64,000 nucleotides of DNA from the IMG/VR virus record IMGVR_UViG_3300022601_000013; one strand, written 5' to 3'. The DNA is from a virus. Taxonomy: Duplodnaviria; Caudoviricetes. A program made the position numbers and the translations under genes. Below are positions 24,251-52,002 of the stretch, piece by piece; position 1 is the stretch's first letter; every line of letters starts with the position of its first letter. Under the pieces are notes generated by a model. It ran no database searches. It was not told where the DNA came from and worked only from the letters and a program-made list of their open reading frames with translations.

Positions 24251-24379
24251 ATGGATAATTTAGAAAAACTTACTGCCGAAAACGGCATTAATGAAAATAT
24301 TCAAAACGTAAACTCTTTTGAAGATTTACCAGAGTCTATGAAAGAAGAATTTGCAGATGGTAAGGGTGGTGAAGATTAA
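24251..24379 (+). CDS. 42-aa acidic peptide coupled to the endolysin start (not in ORF track)
   Basis: GAGGTG RBS; MDNLEKLT...ADGKGGED*; TAATG overlap. Confidence 0.6.
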   Translation: MDNLEKLTAENGINENIQNVNSFEDLPESMKEEFADGKGGED

Positions 24380-26575: not shown

Positions 26576-26610
26576 TAAGGAGCTTCTTGAATGGAGCTCC
26601 TTATTTTTTT
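26576..26610 (+). terminator. intrinsic terminator
   Basis: TAAGGAGCTTC/GGAGCTCCTTA followed by T7. Confidence 0.8.
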
Positions 26611-26628
26611 ATAAAAGGAGATGGTGTT

Positions 26629-27215: not shown

Positions 27216-27737
27216 ATGAGAGTGAATGATTTAATTAATAAAATGAATACAGAAGGTTTTAATCTTGCCGAGACTATTGAAGCTAAAACATATCTTCCTA
27301 TAGTTTTAAAAAAGGTAATTGCTCAGGAAATTGTGTATGATTGCACATCTGAAGATAATGGAGTAATCAAAGTAGATTCTTTTGAAAGATATATGTCTTA
27401 TGTTAGACATATGATTACAGAGCATACAAATCTTGAATATACAGATGATGATTATGACACTATTTGTTTAACAGAATATAATGGCGATTCATTACTTGGT
27501 GCAATCATTGGTTGTTTTGGAGAAGATGCCAAGGAGTGTTCAAGAGTTTTAGAAATGGTTATGGGAGACTATATGCAGGACACCACTCTTGAAAGTATAC
27601 TTGCTAAGACATTATATAATCTTGAAACAAAGCTTGGTAGCTTTATAGAAAAGATGGCAGACAATACAAAGAATATGATTCCAGAGGGTACGAATGTTGA
27701 AGGATTAAGTAAATTGATTGAAATATTAGGAAAATAA
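27216..27737 (+). CDS. hypothetical protein, possible tail assembly chaperone
   Basis: Acidic helical protein two genes before the TMP. Confidence 0.45.
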   Translation: MRVNDLINKMNTEGFNLAETIEAKTYLPIVLKKVIAQEIVYDCTSEDNGVIKVDSFERYMSYVRHMITEHTNLEYTDDDYDTICLTEYNGDSLLGAIIGCFGEDAKECSRVLEMVMGDYMQDTTLESILAKTLYNLETKLGSFIEKMADNTKNMIPEGTNVEGLSKLIEILGK

Positions 27738-27759
27738 TAAAAAAAGGTTGGTGTGTAGA

Positions 27760-28323
27760 ATGGGTCGTATCTTAGAAAAGGCAGAAAAAGAATTCTTAAA
27801 AAGATGTGCGTCTGCACGTAAGGCTGCGGCACAACAAGCTGCAAAAGAGATTCAAATAGATTTTAAGGAACAAGTTTTTGACCGAGCTGTATGGGATTAT
27901 TATGATGATTATAACAGTTCCAAGTACAAAAGAAGCGAAAGTTTATATGATACATTTAAAGTATATACACAGACAGATGGAAATAATATTGGAATTTCTT
28001 ATGATTGGGACTTTAACAGATTGCCACAATATGCAAGTAATTCTGCATATCATAAAAAAGGAAATGAGTGGATTGATTATTACAATCGAACTGATGACGA
28101 TGATAATGGTGTTCCCGAAAAAGGTTGGATATTTACTAATTTTATGGAAGGTATTCACCCAAGATTTTATTTGGATAAAAAACTTGATGTCATAATTGAT
28201 AATAGCTATCAATCAATTCCATCTTATATTCGTATTAAAAATTACAAAGAAGAGTACATCAGGAGTGGACAAATGAGAGATATTTTAATAAAAAATTTAA
28301 AAAAACAATGTAAAAATATATAA
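27760..28323 (+). CDS. hypothetical tail-associated protein
   Basis: YYDDY..SKYKRSESL motif; directly before the TMP. Confidence 0.5.
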   Translation: MGRILEKAEKEFLKRCASARKAAAQQAAKEIQIDFKEQVFDRAVWDYYDDYNSSKYKRSESLYDTFKVYTQTDGNNIGISYDWDFNRLPQYASNSAYHKKGNEWIDYYNRTDDDDNGVPEKGWIFTNFMEGIHPRFYLDKKLDVIIDNSYQSIPSYIRIKNYKEEYIRSGQMRDILIKNLKKQCKNI

Positions 28324-28339: not shown

Positions 28340-31300
28340 ATGGGAAAATATGATGATGCTATTGGTGGCGGTAAAATAATTCTTAGCGTAGAAGAAATAT
28401 TAAACGAAGAGTCTGCAAAAGCGGTTGACAATAGTATTAAAAAGCAAAAAGCAGAAATAGAAAAACCCGTAACAATAAACATTAGCACACTGCAGGCTCG
28501 CAAGGAGCTTGCAAAGCTCGAAAAATATATTGAACGTATTAAGCATTCTCCAAGACATACTGTTAATACTGATGAGTTTGTAAATATTGCAAAAACACTT
28601 AAGGGTAGCGGAAAGTTTACAAAGGAACTTGAGCATTTAACTAAAGATATTAGTGTAAAAATTAATGGTGCTGTTGTCAATGGCATCGACGATATGATTG
28701 CAGCTTATGAGAAAGGTGCGACAAAGATTGGTAAAATTAAGTTTACTCCTCCAGCCCCAACTTTCTCACAAGAGTACATTGATAAAGCTGAAAAAGATTA
28801 TAAAGGTCATATGATAAAACTTGTTGGCATTTCAAGAAAATTAAATAAAGCAATGTCTGAAAATGCCAGCTTTAATGAAATTGCAGATTTAAAAAACATA
28901 GCTGAAGCCGAAAAAGAATCTATGCAGGAATTAGCTGTTGTTCTTAAAAATAATAACGATTTAATAACAGAAGGAGCAAAGGCTGTAAAGCAATACAGAG
29001 ATGCTGTAAAGCAACTTGACGATATGAAGGTTGGTGATCAGGTTGTAAGTGAGCCCAAAAGTGTAACTGCTACTAAAGAACAGATTAAAGCATTAACACA
29101 ACTTAAAAAGGAAGCTGCAGCCACAAGTAAAGCTTTTTACGAAGCCGACAGCAAGCTTCATGATGTTATCGAACAAGAAAGAAAATTAAAAAATACTTAT
29201 GGTGAAATTACAGATTATATTGAAAAAGTTAATGAAATAAGTACAAAAAGACAGAATGTAAGTCTTGAAGATTTACCTGCTGCGAAGCTGAAAAAACAGC
29301 ATAAAGAATATGTTGATGTTATAGGAAACATACTTAAAGAGGTTATTGCTGCGGGTGGTTCAGGTTATAGAACAAAGCCAACAGAATATAGTGCATACAG
29401 ACATTACCTTGAAAGTGTTGATGATTACAATAAACATACAAATCAAGAATTAAATGACATGCTATCCAGAGTTATGTCTGAAATTCGCAAGGTATACACA
29501 GATACAATAACTGCTTTAACAAATGCTGATAAAAATCAAACAGGACTTGAAAGAGAAGCTGTTTTAAAAAAAAGAGCACTTGCAAAACAACATGCGGATG
29601 CTACTTTGGACTACAACACATCTGCTGACAAATCAAGCGAAGCGACACGTAAACTTTATGATTACGAAAAAGAACTTGAAGAACTTGGTATTAATGTTAA
29701 AGCATTAAGCGAGCAGATAGAGAAGAGTTTAGTTGAAGCGAAAAAGCCTAATAAAAAAATAGAGAAAAAAGACAACGAAGAAGCTATAATTAAGCGTTTC
29801 AATAAACTTATGACTGATATTGGAGCAACAGGCTCAAGAATCGACAAGGAAAATAAAATTAACTCTTCGTGGAATGTTCGTGATATGGTTGCTGAGGCTG
29901 AGGCACAACACAAGTTAAGATATAGTTTATCTCCGTCTGCACTTGGTATTACAGACAAAGATGAGTTAAAAACTTTTAATTCTGAGAAAGGGAAAATTGA
30001 AAGATTTATTAAAGCTTTTGAACCTCTTATTAGTCAATTGACAACAACAGAAAATCATAATTCCAAATATGATAACACTACTGAAGTTAACCAAAAAAAA
30101 CAATTAGATACTATTATACAAAAAAACTCTGCTACAAAAGAAAATGTAGAGGCCATAAAGCAAGAGACAGAAGCTCATAAGGCGAACACTAAAGCAGTTG
30201 AAGCTGAAAAGAATACAAAAGAAAGTATAACTGACAACAAGACTGCAACTGCAAATCTTTCAGATGATAAGAATAAAATAGATGTTACGCCAGTCAGAAA
30301 TGTATCAGAAATCCAAAAAGATATTGATGACACTAAAAATGTTTTAAAAATACAACAGGGATGGATAGACATTTTTGGAAAATATCTTGAAGAAGACTAT
30401 ATGAAATCTTCTGGCAAAAAAGAAGCCACTGAAAAATTAAGAAATGCGGTTAAGCGTTTGATAACATATAGAAGTGATCCTCGTCAATATGAATGGCAAG
30501 CATACGCACAAGAAAAATATGAACTGAATGCTGCAATTGCATACAAACAGGCTGAAAAAATTGGTGTTTCAGACAAAACTTTAACAACATACAGAACTGA
30601 CGCAATAGACCCATATACTTTCAACAAGAATATGGACACAGTTAAACGTGTGGTTGATGAGCATCTTGATATTATAAGCAAGCAGACACAAAAACTTGAG
30701 CAGCTTCAGGCTGAATTAATCTCTGTAAAAGAAAAAGAAATTAAAACAACCGATCAGCCTACTAAATCAAAAATTAAATATTACGAAATAGACGAAAATG
30801 CCGCAAGAATATCAAAACAAATGCGTAGCTTTGATGATTACAAAGAAGGCTCTGCTACAGCTTCATACAAAGCGGCAATTGACAAGATAGCAAAAGTTGT
30901 AGAAGACAAGAAGACTCAATTTCCAGAAAAATCTGAACAGCTTGACAAACTATTCGACAGATATGCTAAGAATTTAGCAACATATATAAACAAGGATAAT
31001 CAAATTGGAGCACGATATCCAAGCGTTATGATTTCTGGTGCAGGAAACTATAATGTAAAGAAACATGACAAACAACTTGCCAGCTGGGGTAAAAATTATC
31101 AGTTTTATGAAGATAAAGTTCTTGCTCTTGAAAATCAAATTAGAACTTTAGGTGGCGGGGCAGAGGTTATTCGTGGGGACGAAGAAAATGCTCTTGAAAA
31201 ACTTGAAGCGAAAGTTGAATATTTGAAGTATTGGCATCAGGTTATGGTTGATGTAAACAAGTATTATAGAAAAAACAAATCATTAGAAGGTTTTGATGGA

Positions 31301-34300
31301 GCAGATACAGACGAGCTTGAAAGAATACAAAAAGATCTTGCCGATATGCAAAAGTTTGGAAGACTTGATGTTCCGTATCCTCAGTTTACACTTGCTAACG
31401 ACAACCAAAACATTAAACGTCTTGAGGGTAGAATAGCTGAACTTAAAAAACTTAAATCAGAGAATAGCTCAAGTAATAATTTACAAGAAGAAAATGATAT
31501 CTATAAGCTGTGGGTTGATAAACAGGATATGCGAATCCGTATATCTTTTGAAATAGGCAAGCCAGAACAAGAAATTATTGACATGCTTAAAGGTAAGGCA
31601 TTTAAATGGTCTCCAAAAAATCAAGCATGGCAAAGACAATTAACTAACAATGCCGTTTATGATACTAAGCAATTAAAAACATCATTAAATGAGTTTTATG
31701 GTATTGAAACACAAGCACAACCTAACACTACTGTAGCAGAAGTTCAGCCAAAAGCACAAGATGAATTGGTAAAAAAAGAAAAAGAACACACTACCGCACT
31801 AATGGAACGCACAAATGCGGCCAATGAGTTTGCACAAATAAATAAAGAAATAATACTTCAGCATCAGAAATCAGAGCCTTTTATGCAAAGATATGGCGAA
31901 ATTACTCAAGATATATTGAATGGTAATGTTGCATTAGAAGAAGCTAACAAACAACTAAACAGTTTTGTGTCAACACTTTCAGAAGTGCCTGAAGAAAAGC
32001 TTAAGTTAATTGCAAATCCAAAAAACAATCAAGAGAAAATTTACAATGCGTTGATTTCTGGCAATGAGTTAGAGCAAAGCAAAAAAGGAATTGTTAACGG
32101 ATATAGTGCCGAAGATAGAACATTAATTGCAAAAGCTATTACAGAAGGTCTTCAGCAAGGTTTAAAGGAAATTAATATTAAATTAGGCAATGGTGGGGAA
32201 TTAGCTATTCCAAGCAATGCAGAAATCGCAAGTACAATTCTTAGCAAATTAGGTTTTACTACTAAAACAGATCCGCTGACAGATTTTGTACAAAAACAAT
32301 TTAAGAAATCTAATATAGTTGGCGTTGCAAGTTCTGGTGACGACCATTATGTTTCGGATAGTAGCAAGTTTTATAAAGTGCCTCGTAGTATAAACAAATC
32401 CGATTTAAACAATGATGACGTACAAATTAGAACTCTTGAATCAATACTTAATTATGTAAATATGTTTTCTGAGGCTACCGAGAAACTTCCAGCAAATGTA
32501 AAAGAGTTTAGATACAAAATTGGATCTGGAACAAAAGCAAAGTCAAAATCTATGTATTTGTTTAAAACAGAAGATGGAAAATATATAGCATTAGATAAAT
32601 CAAGTTTTGATGATGTTAAAAAAGTATCATCTGATATTATGTATAATCCTAAGTTGTTTGACAAAAATGGTACATATACTGGAGCTGTTTATGGTGTAAA
32701 TAATGATAGAGCGTTAACATCTGGACTTTTACCAATAAGTTCAAAAAATGCTGAAGATAATTATAAAAAAGGTATTCCAGTTTCAAAGAGCGTGACTGAA
32801 ACGAACAAAAAGCCGTTAGATTTACTTTCAATTCCTGTAAAAGCAATTGAAGCCGAAAATAAAGCTCTTGATAAGCAAGCTGAGAAAACCGAAAATATTA
32901 TTGAGAACAATAAGAAACTTACATCTTCATACGAAGGACTTGTTGAAGCAGTTGAGCAGTATGTAAATACAAGTAAAAAGCTTTGGGATGCATATGATAA
33001 CAAAAAAGAAACTAACGAACTTACTAAAGAAAGAAACACAGCAATTGATAAAATTAAAACATTTTTCCCAGTTGATAATACCAACGGTATAAGTGCAAAT
33101 CTTACTCAATCTGGATATGAAATGAACTTGCAAGATGGCAATGTTTCAAGGGAATTTGCAAACAAAGGTGCTGAATTTACATTGCAACACATTGAGTCAA
33201 GCATTAAAGCATCTGAAATAGAACTTGAACAATTAAAAGAAAAAACAGAAGCTGAAGAAAAGCTTGCTCAAAACATAGAAAAAACAACAGAAGCAAAAAA
33301 GAAACAACAAAAGGTAATTAAAGAAACTCCTGTGGTGAACGAAGCACCAAAAGAGCAAACTAATGTTGTCAAAGAAAGTGTAAAGATAGCTGAAAAAGAA
33401 CTTGAAACAAAAAAAGAACAACTTAAGGTTGAAAAAGAGATTACTGCTGAAGAAACAAAAAGAGTAAAAACAAAAAAAACAACTAAAACTAAAACGCAAA
33501 TTAACCTTGATGAAGAGGGTAATAACGAAGATGAAAGAGTTGACATCATACAACAAACTGTAGATAAAGCACTTGAACGACTTAGAAACGCAGAAAACAA
33601 TATTGTTCCAAAACTAAACATTGATTTATCTAAAGTAGAAACTCAAGGCGATTTGCAATATCAGATTGGAAATCTTGTGCAATCATCATTAAATGCCGAT
33701 TTGTCTGTTGGTTCTGTTAATATTGATCACGATATAGCTAAAATTTCTTTGTATAATAAAGAACTTGGTTTAGTAACACAACAAATGTGGCAATTAAAAC
33801 AAGTTGAAGATTCGTTACAGTTAGAATTTCTTGATGCAAGTAAGTTAAATGTAAACTTTGAGCAAGCTGAAAAATACGCAATAGCTCAACAAAAAGCAAT
33901 TGATAGTGCTGAAAATTGGCTTATAAATGCTAACAAGAGATTAAATACTCAAAAAAGAAATTACCAGAAATCTCAAAAAAAGATAGCTGGTTCGACAGAA
34001 TTGATAGATGTCGATGCTACAACATTAGAGGCTCAGGCAGACAAAACAATTGATAGTTTGGTAGCTCATATTCAAGATCGTATAAATAGCAACATGGGCA
34101 AAACTGTTTCAGAGGGACTTAAAAATCAAATTGTAAAAGATTTAAATGCACTTGAGAATGAAATTAAAATACGACAATTAGAACAATATACAAGTACTAC
34201 AATGAGTGCATCTGAAGCAGAGTCTGCAAGACAGGTTATCATTAACACAATAGACTCTATAGCCGCAAACGCAAAACGAAAGAATGTGTTTGACCAAATT

Positions 34301-37300
34301 AAAGAAAGTTATGAAAGTTTGCGTTCACGTTTAACAGACAGTTCAATCGAAGGATACATTAGCACTAACTTTACTGATGCTATTAATGAAATGAGAGTTC
34401 TCAGAGCAGATTTATCTAAAAATTCTGCCGAAGAACAAAATCTTAAAAATCTTATTGCCCTTCAAGAAAAATTATATGAAGCAAAAAAGAAGGCAGCAGT
34501 ATTTGATATAAGCGGAGAGTCTAATACTTCTGGTGGAATGAAAGCTCACAGAATTGTTGAAGAATTACAACAACAATATAATGAGTCTGTTAAAGTTTTA
34601 AAAATAGAAGAGCAACGTAATACTATTACTGCACGTCAACAAAAATTACAAGAAGAGTTAAACAAATTTAACTCTGAGCAACGTTCAAAACAACAAGAGA
34701 CAAAAGATAAAGAGCAAGAAACTGCAAACAAAGCAAAACAAGAGCAACCAATAATGCAAACATATGCTTCGTTATTTGATATTACTAAAAACATAAACTC
34801 TATTAATGAGCAAATTATGAAGTATCAAGATAAAAATGATGGTTCGCAAATGTTTGCAAACTATATTTCAAACTTAAAGCTGCAAAGACAAGAGCTTGAA
34901 GTTGAACTTAATACTATAGTTAATGACTTAAGTAATTTTTATGCCAATGGTTATATACAAGGTAATCAAAAAATTAATCCAATTCCTTCAAAGCTTATAG
35001 ACGGAGAAAGCTATAATTCAATTAGTTCGTTTTTAAATGACATTAAAACACAAGCAGTTTTAAGCGAAAAAGAAATTAATGACTTATTAAATAGCTTTCA
35101 AAAAATGAAAGATATGGATATATCTGGTGGAAATAAGATAGCTGATATAATTAAACCTGTATTTGAAACATCTAATAGACTTGATGGTATTCAAGGATTA
35201 AAGCCAGAAAAAACAGCACCATTAGCTGGAATATCAGATACTATAAAAGCGTATGTTGGCAAAATTAAATCAGGAGAAATGTCATGGGATTCTGATGAAA
35301 TACCATATCTTAAACAGCTTATTGAAATGTATGTTAAATATGGCAATACGCTTGCAGATACAGCTGAAAAAGAACAGAAGTATTTTGCTAACAAACAAAA
35401 ATACACTTCTGGAATGAAACTGTCAGATGTTACTAATGTAAATACAGAAAACGAAAAAGCGTATAGTGATATGAGAAAGAAACTTGAAGATACAGCACGT
35501 AAGATGGCTGAAGAGTCTGGCAAGGGTCAGATTTTTACAACAGGTTTCTCTCAGGGTGCTGACGGCATTGCAAAACTTGATTTCTCTGTGTTTGACTCTG
35601 CTACAAAGTCGTTACAAAACTTTAGGCTTGAGATGGGTAATGTAACTAACAATATGTCTGTTACAGAAACAACTGTATCTAAATCGTTGCGTAATATTAA
35701 CGCAGCACGAAAACAACTTGAATCATCATCAAACTTACTTGGTATTTTAAGTAGTTCGGGTGTAAATGTTGGTGATGGTGCAACAAAATCAGTTTCTAAA
35801 CTTGTTACTCAAATTAGTTTGTTAGATACTGAAATGAGCAAAGGGGATAAGGCAGATCAAAGTAAAATTGCAATGTATACAAAGCAGCTTGGAATTATGT
35901 CTTCTGAAATTGATAAAGCATATAAACAAATGCTTAAGATGGAAGATGGTATTAGCAGCGGAACATTAAAAAACAGAGGTGTTATAGATACAAATAGCAA
36001 TGTGTATACCCAAGCAAAACAACAAATTGAATCTTATGCACAGACTATCCCAAACGCAACAGTAAGTATAGGTGCTTTTAATGAACAGACTGGCAAAATA
36101 CCATTTACTATAAATGTAGCCAATCAAGAAATAAGAAAATGCGAAGCCCAAATAAACTCTTTAAATGGACAAATGACAATTCAAGAAAAGAGCGTTAATC
36201 AGCTTAAAACTAATATTACTCAAGCGGCTGGAGCGTATGACAGGTTTAAGGGTTCATTAGCATCTGTTGGCAAACAGTTGGTTACTGCTGTTATTGGTTA
36301 TAATGCTTTTTATAAAGTTATTAGTATGTTTAGAACTGGTGTAGGCTATGTCAAAGAAATTGATTTAGCAATGACTGAGCTTAAAAAAGTAACTAATGAA
36401 ACATCAGAAACATATGATAAGTTTTTAAACAATGCATACAAATCTGCTGGTCAAGTAGGTGCTACAATATCTGACTTTGTACAGGCAAGTGCTAACTTCG
36501 CAAGACTTGGTTATGACCTTGATCAGACATCAGATATGGCACAAACAGCTATTGTGTATAAAAATGTAGCAGACGGCTTAAACAGTATTGACGATGCTAC
36601 TGAAAGTATTGTTTCTACTATGAAAGCATTTAATGTAGAAGCTGATGCTACAATGACTATAGCTGACAAATTCAACGAAGTTGGTAACTCATACGCTATA
36701 ACTTCAGCAGGCATAGGCGAAGCTTTAAAGCGTTCAGCATCATCATTGGCTGCTGCTGGAAACACATTAGATGAGTCAATTGCTCTTGTAACTGGAGCTA
36801 ATGCAGTAGTTCAAAATCCAGAAGTTGTTGGTACAGCATTAAAAACACTTTCGCTCAGAATCAGAGGTGTTAAGACCGAATTAGAAGAAGCTGGTCTTGA
36901 TGCTGAAAACATGGCTGAAACTACGGCAACATTGCATGAAAAATTATTAGCACTTAGCCACGGAAAAGTTGATATATTAAAAAATGCAGACGAGTTTGAA
37001 TCTACAACTGAAATTTTAAGACAACTTGCGTCAGCATGGGAAGATATGACTGATATGGAACAGGCTGCAGCAATTGAGCTCGTAGCTGGTAAACGTCAGG
37101 CAAACGTTGTGTCATCACTTATGACAAACTTTGATATAGTAGAAGATGCAATACAAACATCAATGAAGTCAGAAGGTTCTGCACTTAAAGAAAATCAAAA
37201 ATATCTTAATTCAATACAAGGTAAAACAGAAGCTCTCACAAGATCAACACAAGAGCTTTGGAATGAATTAATAAGTTCAGAAGTAATTAAATATTTTATT

Positions 37301-40300
37301 GATGTAACACAAGGTGTTGTTGATTTTGCTAACGCATTTGGTCCATTAAAAACAACATTGGCTGCAGTATTGACATATTTTATGGCGTTCAAAAAAGTAA
37401 ATCCATTGTTAACAATTCAAGGATTTATAAATCAAATGTCGGCTTATGGAAATGCTTCTACATCGTTGTCAAGCCTTACTGGTTCAATAGGTGTAAGTAA
37501 CTTAGGAACAGCAGAAATAGCTACATACGCAGCAGCTGTACAAAATTTAACGTACCAAAAACAAGCGGCTATACTTGCTACAAACGGTTTAAATCAAGCA
37601 ACTATAAAAGAGATATTACTTGAGAATAAAGCAACAGAAGCTGATATACAATCGGCAATGACACAATCAATTGTTACCAGACAAAAACAAGCTGATACAG
37701 CTGTCAATACAGCTTTAACTATAAGCACAGAAATGGCAAGTAATGCAAAATTAAGCGAGGCTGCAAGCAATTTTCTTTTAGCAAATACTGGGAAAGAGCT
37801 TACAAATCAAATGCTTGCCGAGGCTGTTGGTCGTGGTGCAATTACTAAAGCAACAAAAACAGAAATTGCAGCTAAATTTGGACTTATTGGTGTAAATACT
37901 GGTGTTGCAACATCAATTAAAGGTATTGGAACTGCAATAAGACTCGCCATTAGCTCAAATCCTATAGGGTTTATACTTGCAGTTGTTAGTACTATTGCTA
38001 TGGCTATTCCACTTTTTGATAGATTTAGTCAATCGGCTGAAGAACTTGCACAAGAAATGGAACAGGTTAAAGATGCATACAAACAAGTGTCTGATGAAAT
38101 TAACAGTAATATATCTAAAATCACTGACGTTGAAGACGAATTTAATCGTCTTTCAAAAGGTGTAAGTGACTTAGGCGAAAATATTTCATTATCGGCAGAC
38201 GATTATGCAAGATATCAAGAAATAGTTCAAGAACTTGTTGGTATATCTCCAAGCCTCATTTCTGGATACGACAAGGAAGGTAAAGCTATTGCGAACAAAA
38301 ATAGTTTAATTGAACGTTCAATTGAGCTTATGGAAAGAGAACAACAACTTGAGGCAAAAAAACTTACTACTGGAGATACAGGCAAAAATGTATTAAAAGA
38401 TATTAAAGACAGATACAATAAAACTGCTGGCAAAAAAAGTAGCGAAACACATGATTTTACAATAAATTACAGTGCAAGCCTTAATGATGAAGTGTGGAAG
38501 CATGTGGGTAAAAATGGTTTTGGCACACCAACAATTATTGAAGAAATTATCGGAGAAGATACATATGGCGGTGACGTAGTAGCGTTCGCAAGAGCGGAAT
38601 ACGAGAAGGTCATAGATGATTTAAGAAATGAAAATAGTGTTATTGAAAAATATCTTGGCACAGAATATGCAAACACCTTAAGAGAACGTGTTGCGGAATA
38701 CGAAGATTCTATGAAAATTTTTGATGCCGAATTAAGTAAAATCAAAAGTGAATACAACGAACAACTTTCTAATACCCTATTAGGTTCAGACGAATACTGG
38801 GATCTTAATAGTGATATGAGAGGTTATGCTCAAAGTTACGTTTTAAATCTTGATGTTAATACTGAAAATATAAATGAAAAAGAAAAGGAAGTAGAAGAAT
38901 TTGTTAAGTTCTTGTCTGAACATCAGGATGATTTTTCAGATACTTTTGAAAAAGGATATGATGCAATATCAAAAACAGACGAAAAAGGTATAGCTATATC
39001 GTACAAAAAGTATATTAAAAATGTTGAAGATTTTAAGAAAGAACTTCAAGATAATACAGTTTATAATGACGAGCAAAAGAACTGGATTCTTTCAACACTT
39101 GGTTTTGATACTATAGATGAAGACTTAGAAAAAAAGGTTGATAAAATAAGAAATACATTAATAACAGACATTGCTGGGCCTACGCATAAAAGCGTTGTTG
39201 GACCGTCAAATGACACTGTAGATAAACAAATTGAAATAGGAAACTTTATTAACAGCCTTTCTACTCAAGATCTTGAAATATTTTACACAATTAGTGCAAG
39301 TCCAAACAGTATGACATTTGATGAAATTATTGCCGCAATACAAAAAGTAAAAGATTCAACTGGTGTAGGCGTTATTGGTATTGAAACACAAAGCTCAATT
39401 GTTGAACAGTTTGAAAAACATAAGGAAATTTTAACTCAAACTCAAGAAATCTTTATGGACAATGTTGCTGTAACAGAAGAGTATAAAACAGCATTAACTG
39501 AACTTGGTATTTCTGCAACAGAATTAAATGAATGTTTCTATGAAGCAAATCCGCTTGTTGTAAAAAATGCTGAAAAACTTAAAGAACTTATAAAGAACAC
39601 AAAAAACAATACAGCAAACAATACAAAATTAGCAAAAAGCCAAGCAATGCTTAAGTACACAAAATTGCAGAAGCAAACTCAAGATTTAGCAAAAAGATAT
39701 AAAACTTTAACATCCGCTGAAAAATCACAGTTAAAGGCAATGTATGAAGAAATGTCAGTTTTGCAGAAAAACATTGCTAAATATTCATTACTTGAACACC
39801 AACTTCTTGGAACAGCTAATGCATATGAAGAGTTTGCGAATGCTCAGGAAATAGACAGTAGCAATACTTATACAGAACAAGCTCAAGATATGGCTAATGC
39901 ACTTGCAGAAGCTTTTAATTCAGCAAAGCTTGGTACAGAAAGTGCTCAAGCCGCAATTAAAGGTCTTGTGCCAGAGAGTGTATATAAGGATATTGACATT
40001 CTTGATGATAAAATGCAAGCTATATACGACTATTTCAACGGTGGCACACTTTCAAAATATATCACAATAGAATACAATGATGATGATCATAGTATTGAAA
40101 GAGTCGAAATAACAATGGAGAATATGAAAAAATTCTTCGAAGATGGCAAAACTAATGGTGTGTTTACTGGAACGTGGGATGAGTTTGATTTAGACCCAAC
40201 AATTAATAGTTTAGACCAGCTTGCCGAAAAGATGAATGTTACAAAAGAAGTGGCATTCGCAGTAATGCAAGAAATGGAAAAATATGATATTAATTGGCTT

Positions 40301-43300
40301 GGTGGCGATTTTACTACATTACTTGACAGACTTTCTCCAGATTTTAATAGCCTTGAAAATGAGATTTACAAAACATCTACTGCGATGGCTGAACTTGAAC
40401 AGGAATTCATTAATGGCACTGTCTCGGAAGAAGAGTATGGCGAACAAGTTCAAAAGTTATCTGTTCAAATGAGTGACTTAAACGAAGCGGCAAAAGAAAA
40501 AGCTTTGTCATATATAGAACTTAATAAAGAGATTACTGATGTAACTACAGAATTACAAAATGCACGAAAAGAATTAAACAAAGATCCAGAGAATGAAGAG
40601 GCTTTAAATACTGTTAAAGAGCTATCAGAAAAATACAAAGAGCTTGCAATACGCAAAGCCGAATTGGGCAATTTATCTGAACTTGAAATGGCACAGGCAC
40701 TTGAGGCGGCGAGTATAAATGCAGATAACTTAAATGACTCGTTAAGAGAAGTTGATGGCAATATAGAAACTACAATTGAAGGCTTAGAAAAAACTTATGG
40801 AATTATTGCTAATATAAACTCTGATGGTGGTATTGAACTTTCTATGTCAGGCTCTATGAGCACAGAATTACAAGAACAATTAAAAGGTATAGGAGCTCTT
40901 AAAGATGATGGAACTATTGATATATCTCTGTTCTATAATACTTTAAATGACGAGCAAAAGAAGCAATTTGATTCACTTAATGAGCTTACTGGTAAAAAGA
41001 ACTTAATCGAATATGCAATGAGCATGGATGGTGAAGACGCAGTGCAAGAGGCTCTTGATGGTATTCTTCAAGTATTAACTAATATCTTTGAGCAACTTCA
41101 ACAGCACCCATCTCTTACTATAAATACTTCTTCAGCAAAAACAAATGTAGATAGTGTTTTAACCTCATTAAAAGACATTGTAAATGGCACATGGGATAAA
41201 TCTGTAACTATTACAAGAACTATAAAAGACCGTGTATCAAGTATATTTGGTTCTGGTCAAGCTAACGGTAATGCAAATGTTAAAGGAAATGCGTATGTTA
41301 ATGGTAAGTTTGGAGCACCAAAAACAGAGGAATCACTTGTTGGCGAACTTGGCCCAGAAATGCGTGTGCGTGGAAACAGATGGGAATTACTTGGAGAAAA
41401 TGGTGCAGAGTTTACAGAAGTTAAAAAAGATGACATAATCTTTAACCATAAACAAACAAAACAACTCCTTGAAAATGGTCATATAAATTCTCGTGGAAAG
41501 GCATATGCTTCTGGAACAGCGTATGCTGGTATTAACACATGGGTAAGTGGCTATCACGATACAAGTGGTAGCGGCAATGGAGATAGTTCATCTTCAGATG
41601 ACGCTAAAGACGAATTCAAAGAAGTCTTCGATTGGTTTGAAGTTAAACTTGAAGAAATCAATGAGTTACTTGATTTATGGGCTGCTCAACTTGAAAATAT
41701 AGTTGATATTTCTGGCAAGGGTGCAAAGATAGATAGTATTATTGACCAAAACAAATATAAGCTTGATATACTTGCACAAGGTCTTAAGCTTTATGAAAAT
41801 TATACAAATCAATTATTAACTGATATTCCTGCACAGTATAGAGAGGCTGCCAAGAACGGAAAAATTGCAATAGAAACATTTGCTGGCGATGCTGGTGAAA
41901 AGACTCTTGAAGCAATAAACAATTATAGAGACTGGGCTCAAAAGGTTGCTGATGTTAAACAGCAAATGGAAGAACTTACTCAGACAATTGCTGATTTAGC
42001 TAAACAGAAATTTGATATTATTGATGAAGGATATGGTAATAAAATAACTCTTATGGAGCTTCAGATTGACAGGTTGAAAGATTCTGTTCAGTTGATAGAA
42101 GATAAGGGTAATATTGCTGCTTCTCAATATTATGATGCAATGACTAATATAACAAATGATAGAATTAGCAAATTACAAGAAGAACATAAGCTGTTACAGA
42201 AGTCGTTAGACGAATCTGTTGAGGCTGGAGATATTGCTAAATATTCTGATAGATGGTATGAAATGGTTGAAGCAATATATACTGTTGACCAAGAAATCAT
42301 GGAATGCACATCAGACCTTGAAGAATTCCAAAATGCAATCAATGAAATTCATTGGAATAATTTTGATGAGTTAGTTAACAGACTTGAGTACTTACAATCA
42401 GAAACTGATAGCTTAATTGACTTAATGGAGCAAACTGGTGAAATTATTGATTATCCAAAAGATAATGAATACTGGGGAGCAAAGGATGTTGCGTGGAGCA
42501 AAGAGGGCATTACATCTTTAGGATTGTATGCTCAAAAAATGGAAATTGCTGAATACACATCTGAACAATATGCTAAGGCAATTGATAATCTTAATAAAGA
42601 TTATAAGGCTGGTAAGTATAGTGTTAGTGAATATCAGGAGAAACTTGATGAATTAAAACAAGCTCAGTATGACTCAATTAAAACCTACTATGATGCTCAA
42701 GATGCAATTGTAGACCTTAATAAAACCAGAGTTGATGCAATAAAAGATGGCATTAATAAGGAAATAGAAGCATACGAAAAACTTATAAACAAAAAGAAAG
42801 AAGAGCTTAGTGTCGAAAAGGATATGTATGACTTCCAGAAAGATATAGCTGAGAAACAAAAAGATATAAGTGCAATTGAAAGAAAAATATCAGCATTATC
42901 TATGGACAATTCCGCTTCAGCAGTAGCACAAAGAAAGAAACTTGAAGCAGAACTTGCAGAAGCTAAAAACACTCTTGATGAAACATATTACGACAGAAGC
43001 ATCACAGACCAACAAAACGCCCTTGATAAGGAACTTGAAAGCTTTAAAGAACAAAAAGATGCTGAAATAGAAAAGTGGGAAGAATATTTAGAAGATGTTC
43101 AAAAAGTTGTAGCAGATAGTCTTGGTATTGTGCAGACAAATGCTATTGGTGTTTATGACACATTATCTGAAAAGGCTTCTGAATATAATTTAACATTGTC
43201 AAATTCCATAACAACTCCTTGGAAGGACGGTATGAATGCCGTTAGTTCATATCAAGAAACATTTAATACTGCTTCAAGCTCTACATATGAACAGCTTGGT

Positions 43301-44050
43301 AATATTAAGCAACAGTGGCAAGATATTATTGATTTAATGGTTAAAGCTGCTAATGTTGATATTAGTAATCAAAAAGTTGACAATCAAACTCATGTTGCCG
43401 CTGAAAAGAAACAGCAACCTACAAAACAAACTACTACTACACAACAATCACAATCAACTTCTGCAAAATCTGCTCAACCAAGCACATCTGCAGGAAGTAC
43501 AATTACAGTAAAATCTACAGCAACACATTTTGCTACAGGTCAGCGTATGGCAAGTTTTGTTCCTGGCGGTAGTTATACCGTATATCAGGATAATGGTGAC
43601 AGAGTTCTGATTGGTAGAAATGGTGCTTATACTGGCTGGATTTACAAAAAAGATATTCAAGGATATGCGTCAGGCACAACTGGTGTAAAGAATAATCAAC
43701 TTGCATTGATTGATGAACTCGGTGAGGAGTTAGTTATGCATGCAGATGGAAATGGAAAGCTTACTTTCTTGTCAAAAGGAAGCTCGGTAATTCCACATGA
43801 CATTTCTGAAAACTTAATGAAGATTGGCTCAATTGACCCTCAAGAAGTTTTAGACAGAAATAGAGCATCTATCAGCATTGCACCAAGTGTTGCAAACAAT
43901 AATGTAAATATAAACATTAGTTATGGAGATATTTTACATATTGATAAGTTTGATGGAAACAATCCTGAAGACATAGCTAAACTCGTTGAGGCACGATTTA
44001 ATGAACACACTAAGAGCTTAAACAACTCGTTGAAAAAGTATGTAAGATAA
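28340..44050 (+). CDS. giant tape measure protein (5236 aa) with N-terminal cargo domains and C-terminal SH3-like domain
   Basis: TMP core at ~36340-37260 (EIDLAMTELKKV, FARLG, VGTALKTLSLRIRG, AGKRQAN); LVGELGPE and GYASGT...DELGEEL motifs; long coiled coils. Confidence 0.9.
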   Translation: MGKYDDAIGGGKIILSVEEILNEESAKAVDNSIKKQKAEIEKPVTINISTLQARKELAKLEKYIERIKHSPRHTVNTDEFVNIAKTLKGSGKFTKELEHLTKDISVKINGAVVNGIDDMIAAYEKGATKIGKIKFTPPAPTFSQEYIDKAEKDYKGHMIKLVGISRKLNKAMSENASFNEIADLKNIAEAEKESMQELAVVLKNNNDLITEGAKAVKQYRDAVKQLDDMKVGDQVVSEPKSVTATKEQIKALTQLKKEAAATSKAFYEADSKLHDVIEQERKLKNTYGEITDYIEKVNEISTKRQNVSLEDLPAAKLKKQHKEYVDVIGNILKEVIAAGGSGYRTKPTEYSAYRHYLESVDDYNKHTNQELNDMLSRVMSEIRKVYTDTITALTNADKNQTGLEREAVLKKRALAKQHADATLDYNTSADKSSEATRKLYDYEKELEELGINVKALSEQIEKSLVEAKKPNKKIEKKDNEEAIIKRFNKLMTDIGATGSRIDKENKINSSWNVRDMVAEAEAQHKLRYSLSPSALGITDKDELKTFNSEKGKIERFIKAFEPLISQLTTTENHNSKYDNTTEVNQKKQLDTIIQKNSATKENVEAIKQETEAHKANTKAVEAEKNTKESITDNKTATANLSDDKNKIDVTPVRNVSEIQKDIDDTKNVLKIQQGWIDIFGKYLEEDYMKSSGKKEATEKLRNAVKRLITYRSDPRQYEWQAYAQEKYELNAAIAYKQAEKIGVSDKTLTTYRTDAIDPYTFNKNMDTVKRVVDEHLDIISKQTQKLEQLQAELISVKEKEIKTTDQPTKSKIKYYEIDENAARISKQMRSFDDYKEGSATASYKAAIDKIAKVVEDKKTQFPEKSEQLDKLFDRYAKNLATYINKDNQIGARYPSVMISGAGNYNVKKHDKQLASWGKNYQFYEDKVLALENQIRTLGGGAEVIRGDEENALEKLEAKVEYLKYWHQVMVDVNKYYRKNKSLEGFDGADTDELERIQKDLADMQKFGRLDVPYPQFTLANDNQNIKRLEGRIAELKKLKSENSSSNNLQEENDIYKLWVDKQDMRIRISFEIGKPEQEIIDMLKGKAFKWSPKNQAWQRQLTNNAVYDTKQLKTSLNEFYGIETQAQPNTTVAEVQPKAQDELVKKEKEHTTALMERTNAANEFAQINKEIILQHQKSEPFMQRYGEITQDILNGNVALEEANKQLNSFVSTLSEVPEEKLKLIANPKNNQEKIYNALISGNELEQSKKGIVNGYSAEDRTLIAKAITEGLQQGLKEINIKLGNGGELAIPSNAEIASTILSKLGFTTKTDPLTDFVQKQFKKSNIVGVASSGDDHYVSDSSKFYKVPRSINKSDLNNDDVQIRTLESILNYVNMFSEATEKLPANVKEFRYKIGSGTKAKSKSMYLFKTEDGKYIALDKSSFDDVKKVSSDIMYNPKLFDKNGTYTGAVYGVNNDRALTSGLLPISSKNAEDNYKKGIPVSKSVTETNKKPLDLLSIPVKAIEAENKALDKQAEKTENIIENNKKLTSSYEGLVEAVEQYVNTSKKLWDAYDNKKETNELTKERNTAIDKIKTFFPVDNTNGISANLTQSGYEMNLQDGNVSREFANKGAEFTLQHIESSIKASEIELEQLKEKTEAEEKLAQNIEKTTEAKKKQQKVIKETPVVNEAPKEQTNVVKESVKIAEKELETKKEQLKVEKEITAEETKRVKTKKTTKTKTQINLDEEGNNEDERVDIIQQTVDKALERLRNAENNIVPKLNIDLSKVETQGDLQYQIGNLVQSSLNADLSVGSVNIDHDIAKISLYNKELGLVTQQMWQLKQVEDSLQLEFLDASKLNVNFEQAEKYAIAQQKAIDSAENWLINANKRLNTQKRNYQKSQKKIAGSTELIDVDATTLEAQADKTIDSLVAHIQDRINSNMGKTVSEGLKNQIVKDLNALENEIKIRQLEQYTSTTMSASEAESARQVIINTIDSIAANAKRKNVFDQIKESYESLRSRLTDSSIEGYISTNFTDAINEMRVLRADLSKNSAEEQNLKNLIALQEKLYEAKKKAAVFDISGESNTSGGMKAHRIVEELQQQYNESVKVLKIEEQRNTITARQQKLQEELNKFNSEQRSKQQETKDKEQETANKAKQEQPIMQTYASLFDITKNINSINEQIMKYQDKNDGSQMFANYISNLKLQRQELEVELNTIVNDLSNFYANGYIQGNQKINPIPSKLIDGESYNSISSFLNDIKTQAVLSEKEINDLLNSFQKMKDMDISGGNKIADIIKPVFETSNRLDGIQGLKPEKTAPLAGISDTIKAYVGKIKSGEMSWDSDEIPYLKQLIEMYVKYGNTLADTAEKEQKYFANKQKYTSGMKLSDVTNVNTENEKAYSDMRKKLEDTARKMAEESGKGQIFTTGFSQGADGIAKLDFSVFDSATKSLQNFRLEMGNVTNNMSVTETTVSKSLRNINAARKQLESSSNLLGILSSSGVNVGDGATKSVSKLVTQISLLDTEMSKGDKADQSKIAMYTKQLGIMSSEIDKAYKQMLKMEDGISSGTLKNRGVIDTNSNVYTQAKQQIESYAQTIPNATVSIGAFNEQTGKIPFTINVANQEIRKCEAQINSLNGQMTIQEKSVNQLKTNITQAAGAYDRFKGSLASVGKQLVTAVIGYNAFYKVISMFRTGVGYVKEIDLAMTELKKVTNETSETYDKFLNNAYKSAGQVGATISDFVQASANFARLGYDLDQTSDMAQTAIVYKNVADGLNSIDDATESIVSTMKAFNVEADATMTIADKFNEVGNSYAITSAGIGEALKRSASSLAAAGNTLDESIALVTGANAVVQNPEVVGTALKTLSLRIRGVKTELEEAGLDAENMAETTATLHEKLLALSHGKVDILKNADEFESTTEILRQLASAWEDMTDMEQAAAIELVAGKRQANVVSSLMTNFDIVEDAIQTSMKSEGSALKENQKYLNSIQGKTEALTRSTQELWNELISSEVIKYFIDVTQGVVDFANAFGPLKTTLAAVLTYFMAFKKVNPLLTIQGFINQMSAYGNASTSLSSLTGSIGVSNLGTAEIATYAAAVQNLTYQKQAAILATNGLNQATIKEILLENKATEADIQSAMTQSIVTRQKQADTAVNTALTISTEMASNAKLSEAASNFLLANTGKELTNQMLAEAVGRGAITKATKTEIAAKFGLIGVNTGVATSIKGIGTAIRLAISSNPIGFILAVVSTIAMAIPLFDRFSQSAEELAQEMEQVKDAYKQVSDEINSNISKITDVEDEFNRLSKGVSDLGENISLSADDYARYQEIVQELVGISPSLISGYDKEGKAIANKNSLIERSIELMEREQQLEAKKLTTGDTGKNVLKDIKDRYNKTAGKKSSETHDFTINYSASLNDEVWKHVGKNGFGTPTIIEEIIGEDTYGGDVVAFARAEYEKVIDDLRNENSVIEKYLGTEYANTLRERVAEYEDSMKIFDAELSKIKSEYNEQLSNTLLGSDEYWDLNSDMRGYAQSYVLNLDVNTENINEKEKEVEEFVKFLSEHQDDFSDTFEKGYDAISKTDEKGIAISYKKYIKNVEDFKKELQDNTVYNDEQKNWILSTLGFDTIDEDLEKKVDKIRNTLITDIAGPTHKSVVGPSNDTVDKQIEIGNFINSLSTQDLEIFYTISASPNSMTFDEIIAAIQKVKDSTGVGVIGIETQSSIVEQFEKHKEILTQTQEIFMDNVAVTEEYKTALTELGISATELNECFYEANPLVVKNAEKLKELIKNTKNNTANNTKLAKSQAMLKYTKLQKQTQDLAKRYKTLTSAEKSQLKAMYEEMSVLQKNIAKYSLLEHQLLGTANAYEEFANAQEIDSSNTYTEQAQDMANALAEAFNSAKLGTESAQAAIKGLVPESVYKDIDILDDKMQAIYDYFNGGTLSKYITIEYNDDDHSIERVEITMENMKKFFEDGKTNGVFTGTWDEFDLDPTINSLDQLAEKMNVTKEVAFAVMQEMEKYDINWLGGDFTTLLDRLSPDFNSLENEIYKTSTAMAELEQEFINGTVSEEEYGEQVQKLSVQMSDLNEAAKEKALSYIELNKEITDVTTELQNARKELNKDPENEEALNTVKELSEKYKELAIRKAELGNLSELEMAQALEAASINADNLNDSLREVDGNIETTIEGLEKTYGIIANINSDGGIELSMSGSMSTELQEQLKGIGALKDDGTIDISLFYNTLNDEQKKQFDSLNELTGKKNLIEYAMSMDGEDAVQEALDGILQVLTNIFEQLQQHPSLTINTSSAKTNVDSVLTSLKDIVNGTWDKSVTITRTIKDRVSSIFGSGQANGNANVKGNAYVNGKFGAPKTEESLVGELGPEMRVRGNRWELLGENGAEFTEVKKDDIIFNHKQTKQLLENGHINSRGKAYASGTAYAGINTWVSGYHDTSGSGNGDSSSSDDAKDEFKEVFDWFEVKLEEINELLDLWAAQLENIVDISGKGAKIDSIIDQNKYKLDILAQGLKLYENYTNQLLTDIPAQYREAAKNGKIAIETFAGDAGEKTLEAINNYRDWAQKVADVKQQMEELTQTIADLAKQKFDIIDEGYGNKITLMELQIDRLKDSVQLIEDKGNIAASQYYDAMTNITNDRISKLQEEHKLLQKSLDESVEAGDIAKYSDRWYEMVEAIYTVDQEIMECTSDLEEFQNAINEIHWNNFDELVNRLEYLQSETDSLIDLMEQTGEIIDYPKDNEYWGAKDVAWSKEGITSLGLYAQKMEIAEYTSEQYAKAIDNLNKDYKAGKYSVSEYQEKLDELKQAQYDSIKTYYDAQDAIVDLNKTRVDAIKDGINKEIEAYEKLINKKKEELSVEKDMYDFQKDIAEKQKDISAIERKISALSMDNSASAVAQRKKLEAELAEAKNTLDETYYDRSITDQQNALDKELESFKEQKDAEIEKWEEYLEDVQKVVADSLGIVQTNAIGVYDTLSEKASEYNLTLSNSITTPWKDGMNAVSSYQETFNTASSSTYEQLGNIKQQWQDIIDLMVKAANVDISNQKVDNQTHVAAEKKQQPTKQTTTTQQSQSTSAKSAQPSTSAGSTITVKSTATHFATGQRMASFVPGGSYTVYQDNGDRVLIGRNGAYTGWIYKKDIQGYASGTTGVKNNQLALIDELGEELVMHADGNGKLTFLSKGSSVIPHDISENLMKIGSIDPQEVLDRNRASISIAPSVANNNVNINISYGDILHIDKFDGNNPEDIAKLVEARFNEHTKSLNNSLKKYVR

Positions 44051-45077: not shown

Positions 45078-45119
45078 ACAATTAATAACAAATTAATATT
45101 TTAGTTAGGAGGGTGTTAA

Positions 45120-51993: not shown

Positions 51994-52002
51994 ACAAAAA
52001 TA

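Follow-up and report, generated by a model that had tools for sequence, protein, structure and literature searches.

A giant phage tape measure protein with an array of exchangeable modules and a possible second role in protein delivery

The 64,000-nt stretch of viral DNA analyzed here (IMG/VR record IMGVR_UViG_3300022601_000013; in the following, the window) encodes a tape measure protein (TMP) of 5,236 aa in which a zone of shuffled modules, including a folded domain of the DUF3560 type that elsewhere accompanies established polyvalent-protein domains, lies between a conserved N-terminal anchor and the TMP proper. Taking phage and protein together, we somewhat favor the explanation that a large SPbeta-like siphophage of gut Clostridia employs its TMP also as a protein-delivery vehicle, with the exchangeable modules being inserted into the TMP, ejected with it and acting in the host.

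Results

The TMP gene is preceded by an AGGAGG motif 7 nt 5' of its ATG (Table 1), and only one in-frame internal combination of Shine-Dalgarno sequence and start codon is present, at aa 5133. Another contig carries a copy with 99.9% identity, and there are seven relatives of full or nearly full length (3,161-5,684 aa). Judged from its sequence, the protein is a TMP, as the core-domain models TIGR01760 (aa 2665-3003, E = 2.5e-26, 92.5 bits versus a cut-off of 28.8) and PF10145 (aa 2702-2913, E = 3.2e-20, 73.3 bits versus a cut-off of 33.2) both score above their curated cut-offs, and this places the core where the original prediction had expected it, near aa 2670. Furthermore, phrog_4211 matches aa 2607-3866 (E = 5e-110). 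Also typical of TMPs, aa 1-2340 are mainly alpha-helical in AF2 models, except for three regions, and hydrophobic segments follow the core (mean hydropathy of +0.49 to +0.81 in 60-aa windows over aa 3001-3240). The C-terminal part is 45-52% identical in P0005, P0006, P0008 and P0009.

Among the neighboring genes, those downstream fit the position of a TMP gene before Dit/Tal. A DUF6558 protein (PF20195 and PF20753 at E = 2.6e-14), putatively Dit-like, is followed by a minor tail protein (phrog_6211, E = 1.4e-27) that weakly resembles PF24049 YOMG_N (E = 0.0027, below the model's cut-off) and is probably Tal-like; SPbeta-type yomH/yomG-like tail genes come after the TMP. For the two upstream ORFs, neither a PHROG or Pfam match nor a frameshift signal was established.

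Table 1. Position of the TMP gene, its parts and adjacent tail genes in the window.
Feature	Position (nt)	Strand	Remarks
Two small ORFs directly upstream	27216..28323	+	of 173 and 191 aa; putative tail assembly chaperones, by position only
Whole tape measure gene	28340..44050	+	single ORF, 5,236 aa; from ORF list and translation
Conserved N-terminal anchor	28340..28651	+	aa 1-104; MGKYDDAIGGGKII... motif
Helical region A	28652..30289	+	aa 105-650; includes block 1 of the original prediction
Block 2, helical module	30302..30748	+	aa ~655-803; helical only in AF2
Block 3, folded DUF3560-type polyvalent-protein module (predicted)	30770..31714	+	aa 811-1125
Block 4, lineage-restricted, not rod-like	31802..32839	+	aa ~1155-1500
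Module 5, helical	32852..33205	+	aa ~1505-1622; pLDDT about 70-75 over aa 1531-1570
K/E/T-rich low-complexity linker	33206..33532	+	aa 1623-1731; low-confidence helix in AF2
Conserved helical pre-core	33533..36319	+	aa 1732-2660
Tape measure core domain	36332..37348	+	aa 2665-3003; TIGR01760 and PF10145; many columns invariant across relatives
Hydrophobic, membrane-like segments 3' of core	37337..38059	+	aa ~3000-3240
Conserved C-terminal ~990 aa of TMP, tip-proximal end	41087..44047	+	
Downstream tail genes	44115..48170	+	DUF6558 protein, then minor tail protein

Within the N-terminal half, the anchor shows 32-62% identity to P0005, P0009, P0131, P0132, P0134, P0140 and P0143, with differing sequences following it, and the anchor HMM matches these seven proteins as well as P0008 at E-values of 1e-33 to 1e-49. 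Region A, modeled as helices of 20-65 aa without strands (pLDDT 35-84), has counterparts only in the two closest relatives (P0003 and P0004) and, over a short stretch, in P0143. Block 2 is variably present among TMPs. It is missing in P0003, a protein otherwise about 86-96% identical over aligned stretches, and is located elsewhere in P0007 (aa 411), P0009 (aa 292), P0139 (aa 360), L006, L013 and L110. Two stretches in this part, aa 477-564 (nt ~29770-30030) and aa 664-787 (nt ~30330-30700), had been described as globular, but both are modeled as plain helices with low to moderate confidence. For a third stretch (nt ~32290-32790), located in block 4, this description turned out to be partly right: aa ~1273-1520 are non-rod-like in AF2 and strands are seen at aa 1387-1463, but at a pLDDT of 25-50 a globular fold is not obtained. 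Block 4 is common only to P0005, P0135, P0137, P0170 and P0279 (38-49% identity) and has no usable neighbor in the Atlas. Module 5 recurs with 40-56% identity, but at different positions, in P0008 (aa 553), P0130 (aa 641), P0135 (aa 1801), P0140 (aa 1161) and P0170 (aa 1540) and thus moves independently among TMPs. The expected K/E/T linkers are evident at aa ~566-654 and ~1623-1731, with an entropy of 3.2 bits, 50-55% charged residues and pLDDT values below 50. The pre-core, finally, is 31-54% identical in P0005-P0009 and most N-terminal fragments. Apart from a small four-stranded sheet at aa 1789-1833, it consists of long helices in the model, with pLDDT values of mostly 65-90 over aa 1840-2340. 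Due to this conservation in all giant relatives and its helical model, aa 1732-2660 looks like TMP proper and not like cargo. Hence, the ~2600 aa of cargo-like domains proposed initially are an overestimate, and the variable, module-bearing zone is limited to aa ~105-1731.

The assumption of a globular structure was correct for nt 30779-31700, corresponding to block 3, which AF2 predicts at a pLDDT of 90-98 to be a bundle of helices with a small sheet at aa 1055-1100, that is, a compact folded alpha+beta domain and not a rod. The AlphaFold check suggested previously returned one high-confidence folded domain, but otherwise mostly long helices over aa 1-2340, which weakly resemble other TMP models. 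Block 3 is matched end to end by phrog_19458 (E = 1.7e-67), and its family comprises 4,031 cluster representatives of all lengths at E <= 1e-3. Stand-alone homologues are represented by 887 phage and plasmid proteins of about 300 aa, and in Clostridium phage Maintenon the gene for one of 307 aa lies in the non-structural region. The family also occurs in 288 plasmids, 155 of which are conjugative, with members annotated as DUF3560, ArdC or DUF4316 proteins. In 36 multidomain carriers, partners are ArdC-N (16), YodL (14), LPD25 (14), DUF4316 (12), MPTase-PolyVal (8) and ArdA (7), in addition to LPD26/16/34/15/29 and MuF_C. As it is embedded elsewhere with the first six of these domains, block 3 can be considered, by its sequence relationships, a genuine polyvalent-protein module.

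Kinship to DUF3560-annotated proteins is clear from phmmer, tblastn and Foldseek, and the Atlas clusters for block 3 are named DUF3560. The PF12083 (DUF3560) model did not match the window's block 3 even at E <= 5, and homologues of the latter gave 22.6-25.8 bits (cut-off 27.2) over the C-terminal third only. A solved relative was not found for block 3, and we know of no function of DUF3560-type domains. Assignment as DNA primase was rejected, as Pfam/NCBIfam scans of the domain and four homologues gave no primase family; the term is phrog_19458's own label, and the Maintenon homologue was so named by HHpred against PHROGs. Among the giant TMPs, block 3 is 64-77% identical versus 46-50% for the TMP core, which argues for selection on block 3 itself. 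In the phylogenetic tree, 18 of the 19 TMP-borne copies fall into one clade (support 0.98), while the copy of P0160 nests among non-TMP polyvalent proteins, indicating at least two captures of block 3 by TMPs.

Giant TMP relatives and N-terminal fragments with both anchor and pre-core number about 25, and the modules between the two are exchanged among them. The position of block 3 varies from aa 186 to 1214, and even relatives sharing about 84-87% identity along most of the sequence differ in the blocks that they contain. Thus, the alignment of related TMPs bears out the anticipated independent gain, loss and movement of blocks. In its module zone, the giant TMP P0009 carries PBECR5, and an ART-PolyVal-like module of P0160 recurs with 58-75% identity in P0133, P0140, P0141, P0170 and P0280, the ART-PolyVal matches (28.8 bits) staying below the Pfam gathering score of 31.2. 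The 19 large block 3 carriers, 12 of them with PF10145, include ddrB-ParB (E = 5.7e-34) and Methyltransf_23, both counted across all 19 and not assigned to individual carriers, as well as Zeta_toxin, the carrier of which is probably P0144, a protein not established as TMP. Enzymes of the PBECR5, ART, ddrB-ParB, methyltransferase and toxin types have cytoplasmic substrates.

In the window's TMP, only the TMP core and the one DUF3560-type module were recognized, whereas an enzymatic or known anti-defence domain was not detected with Pfam, NCBIfam, PADLOC and PDB sequences, nor was an MPTase or other peptidase family found in aa 1-5236 at E <= 0.01. The effector or anti-defence domains of the original prediction are encountered as PBECR5 and ART-like modules in relatives, but not in the protein itself. 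Likewise, its polyvalent likeness holds for the protein lineage, given the partners of block 3, the shuffling and the modules of the relatives, but does not extend to the whole N-terminal 2,600 aa as cargo.

Discussion

According to the delivery explanation, the TMP would have been lengthened by insertions between the anchor (aa 1-104) and the pre-core/core (aa 1732 onward), and the inserted zone (aa ~105-1731) would represent an array of independently exchangeable modules that are separated by linkers and packaged in the virion. At infection, the TMP would exit the tail first, with its tip-proximal C-terminus in front, and its hydrophobic part would help to build a channel. The N-terminal module array, adjoining the leading DNA end, would then pass this channel in an extended state and enter the cytoplasm, where the modules might regain their fold and contribute early to anti-restriction or to host take-over, as is thought for polyvalent proteins, which phages and conjugative elements deliver to a new host along with their DNA. 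A folded domain of 35 kDa, which would be present threefold in a trimeric TMP, is expected to be too large for the ~4-nm tail lumen. To our knowledge, it is not generally established that any part of a siphophage TMP enters the cytoplasm. The module types found in the TMP and its relatives are ones acting on cytoplasmic targets. A description of TMPs as polyvalent chassis was not found in the searchable literature.

An array acting undelivered, in the producing cell or in assembly, appears rather improbable. Such an array might assist the very long TMP as an integral chaperone or scaffold, or represent a late host-manipulating polyprotein cleaved off before tail completion. Processing of the latter kind would have a precedent in lambda gpH, which is proteolytically processed in assembly, but a peptidase domain or recognizable cleavage module was not found here, and a conserved anchor ahead of the array would hardly be expected if the entire N-region were discarded. 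Known tube dimensions, with which the folded domains appear too large for the tail lumen, and the two upstream ORFs without recognizable chaperone family would be in line with such an undelivered array, whereas the block 3 partners ArdC-N, ArdA and MuF_C stem from proteins thought to be active in the newly entered cell (PMC5512222).

It is similarly unlikely that all 5,236 residues simply measure a tail of about 0.8 micrometre, with the modules as functionless, length-adding stuffer. The compact fold of block 3, which is no rod and better conserved than the TMP core, does not agree with such a pure ruler, although most of aa 1-2340 is modeled as long helices and the modules lie between N-terminal anchor and core, the site of ruler-length addition. 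In IMG/VR, the lengths of TMPs of the same core family vary continuously between about 1,900 and 4,240 aa, their N-extensions of 300-1,580 aa being free of Pfam matches, and 500-nm tails are found in Gordonia phages with 9-kb TMP genes (PMC4919401), both compatible with length addition; the repeatedly acquired modules, however, are of conflict type and not random (DUF3560-type twice, PBECR5, ART-like, ddrB-ParB and methyltransferase). Despite the metagenomic source of the window and a frame broken across the equivalent region in the public relative MT835469, an assembly chimera or a sequencing error joining two genes can practically be dismissed, as a 15.7-kb open frame in DNA of 33% G+C is not attainable by chance, the same architecture (4,729-5,684 aa) recurs on six or more independent contigs of other samples, and more than 15 N-terminal fragments run continuously from the anchor via the modules into the TMP core.

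Returning to delivery by the TMP, the closest comparison is with the polyvalent proteins of phages and conjugative elements described by Iyer, Burroughs, Anand, de Souza and Aravind in 2017 (PMC5512222). Like these, the window's TMP is very large, is encoded among virion genes, has linker-separated modules shuffled between relatives and contains a domain recurring with established polyvalent domains, and its relatives carry PBECR5 and ART-PolyVal-like modules. In contrast, the described anchors are MuF/portal head domains or relaxase/T4SS contexts, and tape measure or minor tail proteins are never mentioned in the main text (PMC5512222), whereas the module array is here fused to a TMP, a virion protein ejected at infection. 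A further difference is the lack of a recognized enzymatic domain and of an MPTase; MPTases or other domain-releasing peptidases are frequent, but not universal, in polyvalent proteins.

TMPs with embedded cell-wall motifs are known from mycobacteriophage TM4 (Rpf-like motif) and SPbeta (lytic transglycosylase of YomI). The window's protein resembles these in being a siphophage TMP with an extra element ejected at infection, and its core and downstream genes are SPbeta-like. However, the extra elements of TM4 and YomI, which are small or C-terminal, have peptidoglycan outside the membrane as their target, whereas about 1,600 aa of modules of cytoplasmic-target types are present here near the N-terminus.

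According to Nagakubo et al. 2026 (PMC13277306), effectors of the Sle1 type from actinobacterial contractile injection systems are likewise TMP-related modular proteins in a tail-like tube lumen, serving as a reconfigurable platform for variable domains. In contrast to the window's TMP, Sle1 is part of an intracellular contractile nanomachine of Actinobacteria and not of an infectious siphophage, bears its variable domain C-terminally and is devoid of a DUF3560 or other polyvalent module and of a 5,000-aa ruler. With respect to size, the TMP genes of Gordonia phages Katyusha and Benczkowski14, considered "among the largest" (PMC4919401), are also extremely long, but the window's gene is about 1.7 times longer and its product, unlike theirs, holds a folded non-TMP domain.

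Tape measure gene and architecture of the encoded protein

The tail tape measure protein (TMP) gene is one open frame with an even G+C content of 31-36%, and AGGAGG lies seven bases upstream of its ATG. An internal translation start giving a shorter ruler was not found before aa 5133. The identity of the product is established by TIGR01760 and PF10145, both matched with scores far over the cut-offs, so that the recognizable core begins where the original prediction had placed it, near aa 2670; phrog_4211 of the PHROG collection matches as well. The C-terminal ~990 aa show 45-52% identity in all full-length relatives.

Coordinates of the TMP, its predicted structural elements (AlphaFold2) and neighbouring genes.
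Feature	Position	Description	Model confidence (pLDDT)
Endolysin gene	24379-26349	656 aa	
RuvC-like resolvase gene	26587-27132	phrog_159, E 6e-19	
Two small ORFs	directly before TMP gene	without assigned family	
TMP gene	28340-44050 (+)	5,236 codons, 15.7 kb	
Anchor	aa 1-104	N-terminal	
N-terminal helices	aa 1-810	helices only, 20-65 residues each	35-84
Block 2	aa 655-803		
Block 3	aa 811-1125	helical bundle plus small sheet at aa 1055-1100	90-98
Block 4	aa ~1155-1500		
Irregular region	aa 1273-1520	not rod-like; strands at aa 1387-1463	25-50
Helix	aa 1501-1573		confident
Module 5	aa ~1505-1622		
Helix	aa 1600-1711	within K/E/T-rich linker	low confidence
Small sheet	aa 1789-1833	four strands	
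Long helices	aa 1840-2340		mostly 65-90
phrog_4211 match	aa 2607-3866		
TIGR01760 match	aa 2665-3003	TMP core	
PF10145 match	aa 2702-2913	TMP core	
Hydrophobic segments	aa 3001-3240	after TMP core	
Downstream genes	after TMP gene	DUF6558 tail protein; minor tail protein, weakly YomG_N-like (YOMG_N under its cut-off); another tail protein	
Tubulin gene and convergent ORF	50845-53996	TubZ/PhuZ-like tubulin (phrog_17961, phrog_4733); 657-aa ORF on the minus strand	

For the N-terminal half, AlphaFold2 models of aa 1-1200 and aa 1141-2340 were built from alignments of relatives. As these contain regions other than plain helix, aa 1-2340 are not predicted as a continuous coiled coil, one of the outcomes that would have spoken against the original prediction. 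Of the four globular-looking blocks proposed there, one (block 3) is clearly globular, while two turned out to be simply helical and one is modelled at a pLDDT of only 25-50. Scans of aa 1-2700 against Pfam, NCBIfam, PADLOC and PDB sequences gave nothing credible, weak coiled-coil-type matches to SMC, LmuB and L24 being rejected as compositional noise, and the sole credible family match in this range is phrog_19458, aligned end to end at aa 813-1116 (E 1.7e-67). Foldseek comparison of both 1,200-aa models with the PDB returned no match at E ≤ 1e-3, and VIA-align wide, with block 3 covered only as part of a longer model, gave just generic helical-hairpin matches on aa 130-313. Atlas neighbours of block 4 had unusable scores of 0.81, and a search with aa 1150-1625 for relatives that are shorter or stand alone yielded just three fragments of giant TMPs.

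The folded domain is of the DUF3560 type

At a threshold of E ≤ 1e-3, exhaustive phmmer with aa 794-1134 as query retrieved 4,031 cluster representatives. These comprise large proteins of 1,650-3,250 aa with 46-77% identity, which are N-terminal parts of further giant TMPs, stand-alone proteins some 300 aa long (887 in a word-indexed search) and multidomain proteins of 400-3,000 aa bearing the domain at any position. Clostridium phage Maintenon encodes a 307-aa stand-alone homologue in a non-structural region; its "primase" label comes solely from HHpred against PHROGs, and reading phrog_19458 as a primase was rejected. Pfam partners in 36 multidomain carriers are ArdC-N (16), YodL (14), LPD25 (14), DUF4316 (12), MPTase-PolyVal (8), ArdA (7) and LPD26 (4), besides LPD16, MuF_C, LPD34, LPD15, LPD29 and ART-PolyVal. 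Such partners are signature domains of polyvalent proteins, the large multidomain proteins of phages and conjugative elements (Iyer et al., 2017; PMC5512222), and block 3 is, judged by sequence, a polyvalent-protein module.

The domain also occurs in 288 plasmid records, 155 of them conjugative, where the underlying genes are annotated as DUF3560, ArdC or DUF4316 proteins, and both BFVD and Atlas name its relatives DUF3560. Since block 3 of the window does not reach PF12083 and its homologues fall just under the cut-off of this family, the domain is termed DUF3560-type and not assigned as a member. No fold match to a solved structure was obtained when block 3 was compared as part of a 1,200-aa model, which is a weak test, and a profile of the family found no match among PDB sequences. 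To our knowledge, no function is known for DUF3560-type domains, a family that is very large and occurs on conjugative plasmids and in phages.

Among giant TMPs, block 3 is conserved at 64-77% identity versus 46-50% for the TMP core. A tree of 177 copies places 18 of the 19 found in TMPs in a single clade (support 0.98), whereas that of P0160, another TMP, groups among non-TMP polyvalent proteins; the domain thus entered TMPs at least twice.

A further carrier, P0145 (3,121 aa), has two full DUF3560-type copies (aa 1322-1632 and 1943-2252) plus partial ones. Neither a Pfam family at E ≤ 1e-4 nor similarity to TMPs was detected in it, and it may represent giant modular proteins of another kind.

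Modules vary between a conserved anchor and the ruler

The comparison, by BLASTP maps and an HMM covering residues 1-115, drew on seven near-full-length relatives (3,161-5,684 aa) and more than 15 N-terminal fragments. Kept in these relatives are the anchor (MGKYDDAIGGGKII...) and the pre-core from about aa 1722-2130 on, while the zone between them varies in content and length. Block 3 begins at aa 186 of P0134, 316 of P0130, 672 of P0005, 795 of the TMP of the window and 1214 of P0007, and is missing in P0008 and P0009. Block 2 is missing in P0003, a protein with about 86-96% identity over the other, aligned stretches, and is found at other positions in P0007, P0009 and P0139 as well as in the contigs L006, L013 and L110. 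P0004 has a different sequence in place of aa 1818-2064, block 4 is present in five relatives only, and module 5 moves independently. These differences show the independent gain and loss of blocks for which the original prediction had proposed to look.

Searching IMG/VR with a single core sequence gave no close relatives, and a profile query with the core gave 374, all distant, of which just L006, L013 and L110 share an N-terminal block. The IMG/VR contigs L003-L012 (100-158 kb) encode TMPs of the same core family that reach 3,960-4,240 aa on phage contigs some 150 kb long, and very long tape measures seem to be common in this gut phage group. In seven scanned N-extensions of IMG/VR TMPs (1,300-1,580 aa in L003-L012), no Pfam domain was found. 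A TMP-like match over 15.7 kb was also observed in L001 (MT835469.1, a 176-kb "Bacteriophage sp." from human faeces, UNVERIFIED record), where the frame is interrupted, leaving a 2,722-aa ORF with several shorter ORFs upstream, and reflects either sequencing errors or a naturally split giant TMP.

Other giant TMPs and large carriers bear further modules. In P0009 (5,326 aa), PF18814 occurs together with PF10145 and PF01471; PF18814 corresponds to PBECR5, a family that was defined in the polyvalent-protein study (PMC5512222) and is predicted to be an RNase. P0160 combines block 3 (aa 569-859) with an ART-PolyVal-like module (aa 952-1104) and a TMP core from aa 2162, and copies of this ART-like module with 58-75% identity are found at different positions in P0133, P0140, P0141, P0170 and P0280, all ART-PolyVal matches lying just under the Pfam gathering score. 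PF10145 is present in 12 of 19 large block-3 carriers, and the pooled tally of these 19, in which ddrB-ParB and methyltransferase are not tied to individual proteins, comprises ddrB-ParB (E 5.7e-34), Methyltransf_23 (2), Zeta_toxin (E 1.3e-11) and ART-PolyVal (2). The likely zeta-kinase carrier is P0144, whose status as a TMP is not shown. PDB sequence searches with P0160 and P0144 gave no match for the ART and zeta assignments. In the TMP of the window, none of the PBECR5, ART-like, ddrB-ParB, methyltransferase or zeta modules is found.

Possible delivery of modules by the tape measure

TMPs are regarded as rulers and channel formers; inside the tail they occupy the lumen, their C-terminus being at the tip, and at infection they come out first and help to form the DNA channel. 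On balance, we favour the variable zone being cargo: threaded along the tail and the channel while extended, the module array would reach the cell, refold there and act early; being inserted near the head-proximal end, the modules would exit last, beside the leading end of the DNA. Modules of this TMP lineage have cytoplasmic substrates and elsewhere accompany proteins thought to enter the new host with the DNA. The main difficulty of the cargo reading is steric, as a 35-kDa domain in its folded state should be too large for a lumen of ~4 nm. Pfam reveals no releasing peptidase in the TMP of the window, and it has no internal start before aa 5133. That the protein is a pure ruler with modules as stuffer is considered unlikely. 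It is similarly improbable that the modules act only in the producing cell or in assembly and are removed before completion. The anatomy of the modular TMP is well supported, and an artefact is hardly credible.

If the variable zone is indeed cargo, the siphophage TMP might, more tentatively, represent a hitherto undescribed vehicle for polyvalent effectors, a third one next to MuF/portal head proteins and conjugative relaxase/T4SS substrates. A lineage of large gut-Clostridia phages might in this way hold as many as ~1,600 aa of exchangeable modules (DUF3560-type, ART-like, PBECR RNase, ddrB-ParB nuclease, methyltransferase) between TMP anchor and ruler and thread them unfolded along the tail and a channel made by the TMP, so that they reach the cytoplasm immediately before the DNA. 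The phage anchors described for polyvalent proteins are MuF and portal, in contrast to the tape measure proposed here, and tape measure proteins are not mentioned in the main text of that study (PMC5512222). Full-text literature searches combining tape measure with polyvalent, ADP-ribosyltransferase, MuF/polymorphic toxin, anti-defence or DUF3560 retrieved no account of polyvalent modules on TMPs. TMPs in which peptidoglycan-active motifs are embedded form a known class, and we know of no TMP extras so far other than small peptidoglycan- or cell-wall-active motifs. TMP-related, reconfigurable effectors have recently been described for actinobacterial contractile injection systems (PMC13277306). 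TMP genes of Gordonia phages, termed among the largest, measure 9 kb (PMC4919401), compared with 15.7 kb here.

Cytoplasm-directed modules on TMPs would provide siphophages with a protein-injection route without head packaging and explain some of the extreme length of TMPs in gut phages; the rule of 0.15 nm per residue would be unreliable for module-bearing TMPs. DUF3560-type domains would gain a testable role during entry of the DNA and, because the same chassis bears different modules, the TMP lineage offers natural swap experiments.

Gene neighbourhood

The TMP gene is part of a rightward late operon, preceded by genes for terminase, portal and other structural proteins and then by those for an endolysin and a RuvC-like resolvase. 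Together with the downstream genes, it is arranged like yomI-yomH-yomG in SPbeta-like phages, and tblastn with its C-terminal half matches, among others, TMPs of the SPbeta group. Relatives of the core domain are found on phage contigs binned mainly with gut Clostridia and in some cases with other phyla, and near-identical DNA was not found in 50,697 phage records.

The location of the gene for the Holliday junction resolvase within the structural module, between endolysin and tail genes, is unusual. In the endolysin, aa 4-147 and aa 478-655 have PHROG matches to lysins and flank a middle part (aa 147-324) matching the unrelated family phrog_32482, a layout compatible with a putative insertion such as an intein. 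The tubulin gene, convergent with a 657-aa ORF on the minus strand, lies at a strand switch visible in the GC skew at about 52000 and suggests an SPbeta-like phage whose lifestyle is plasmid-like or dual.
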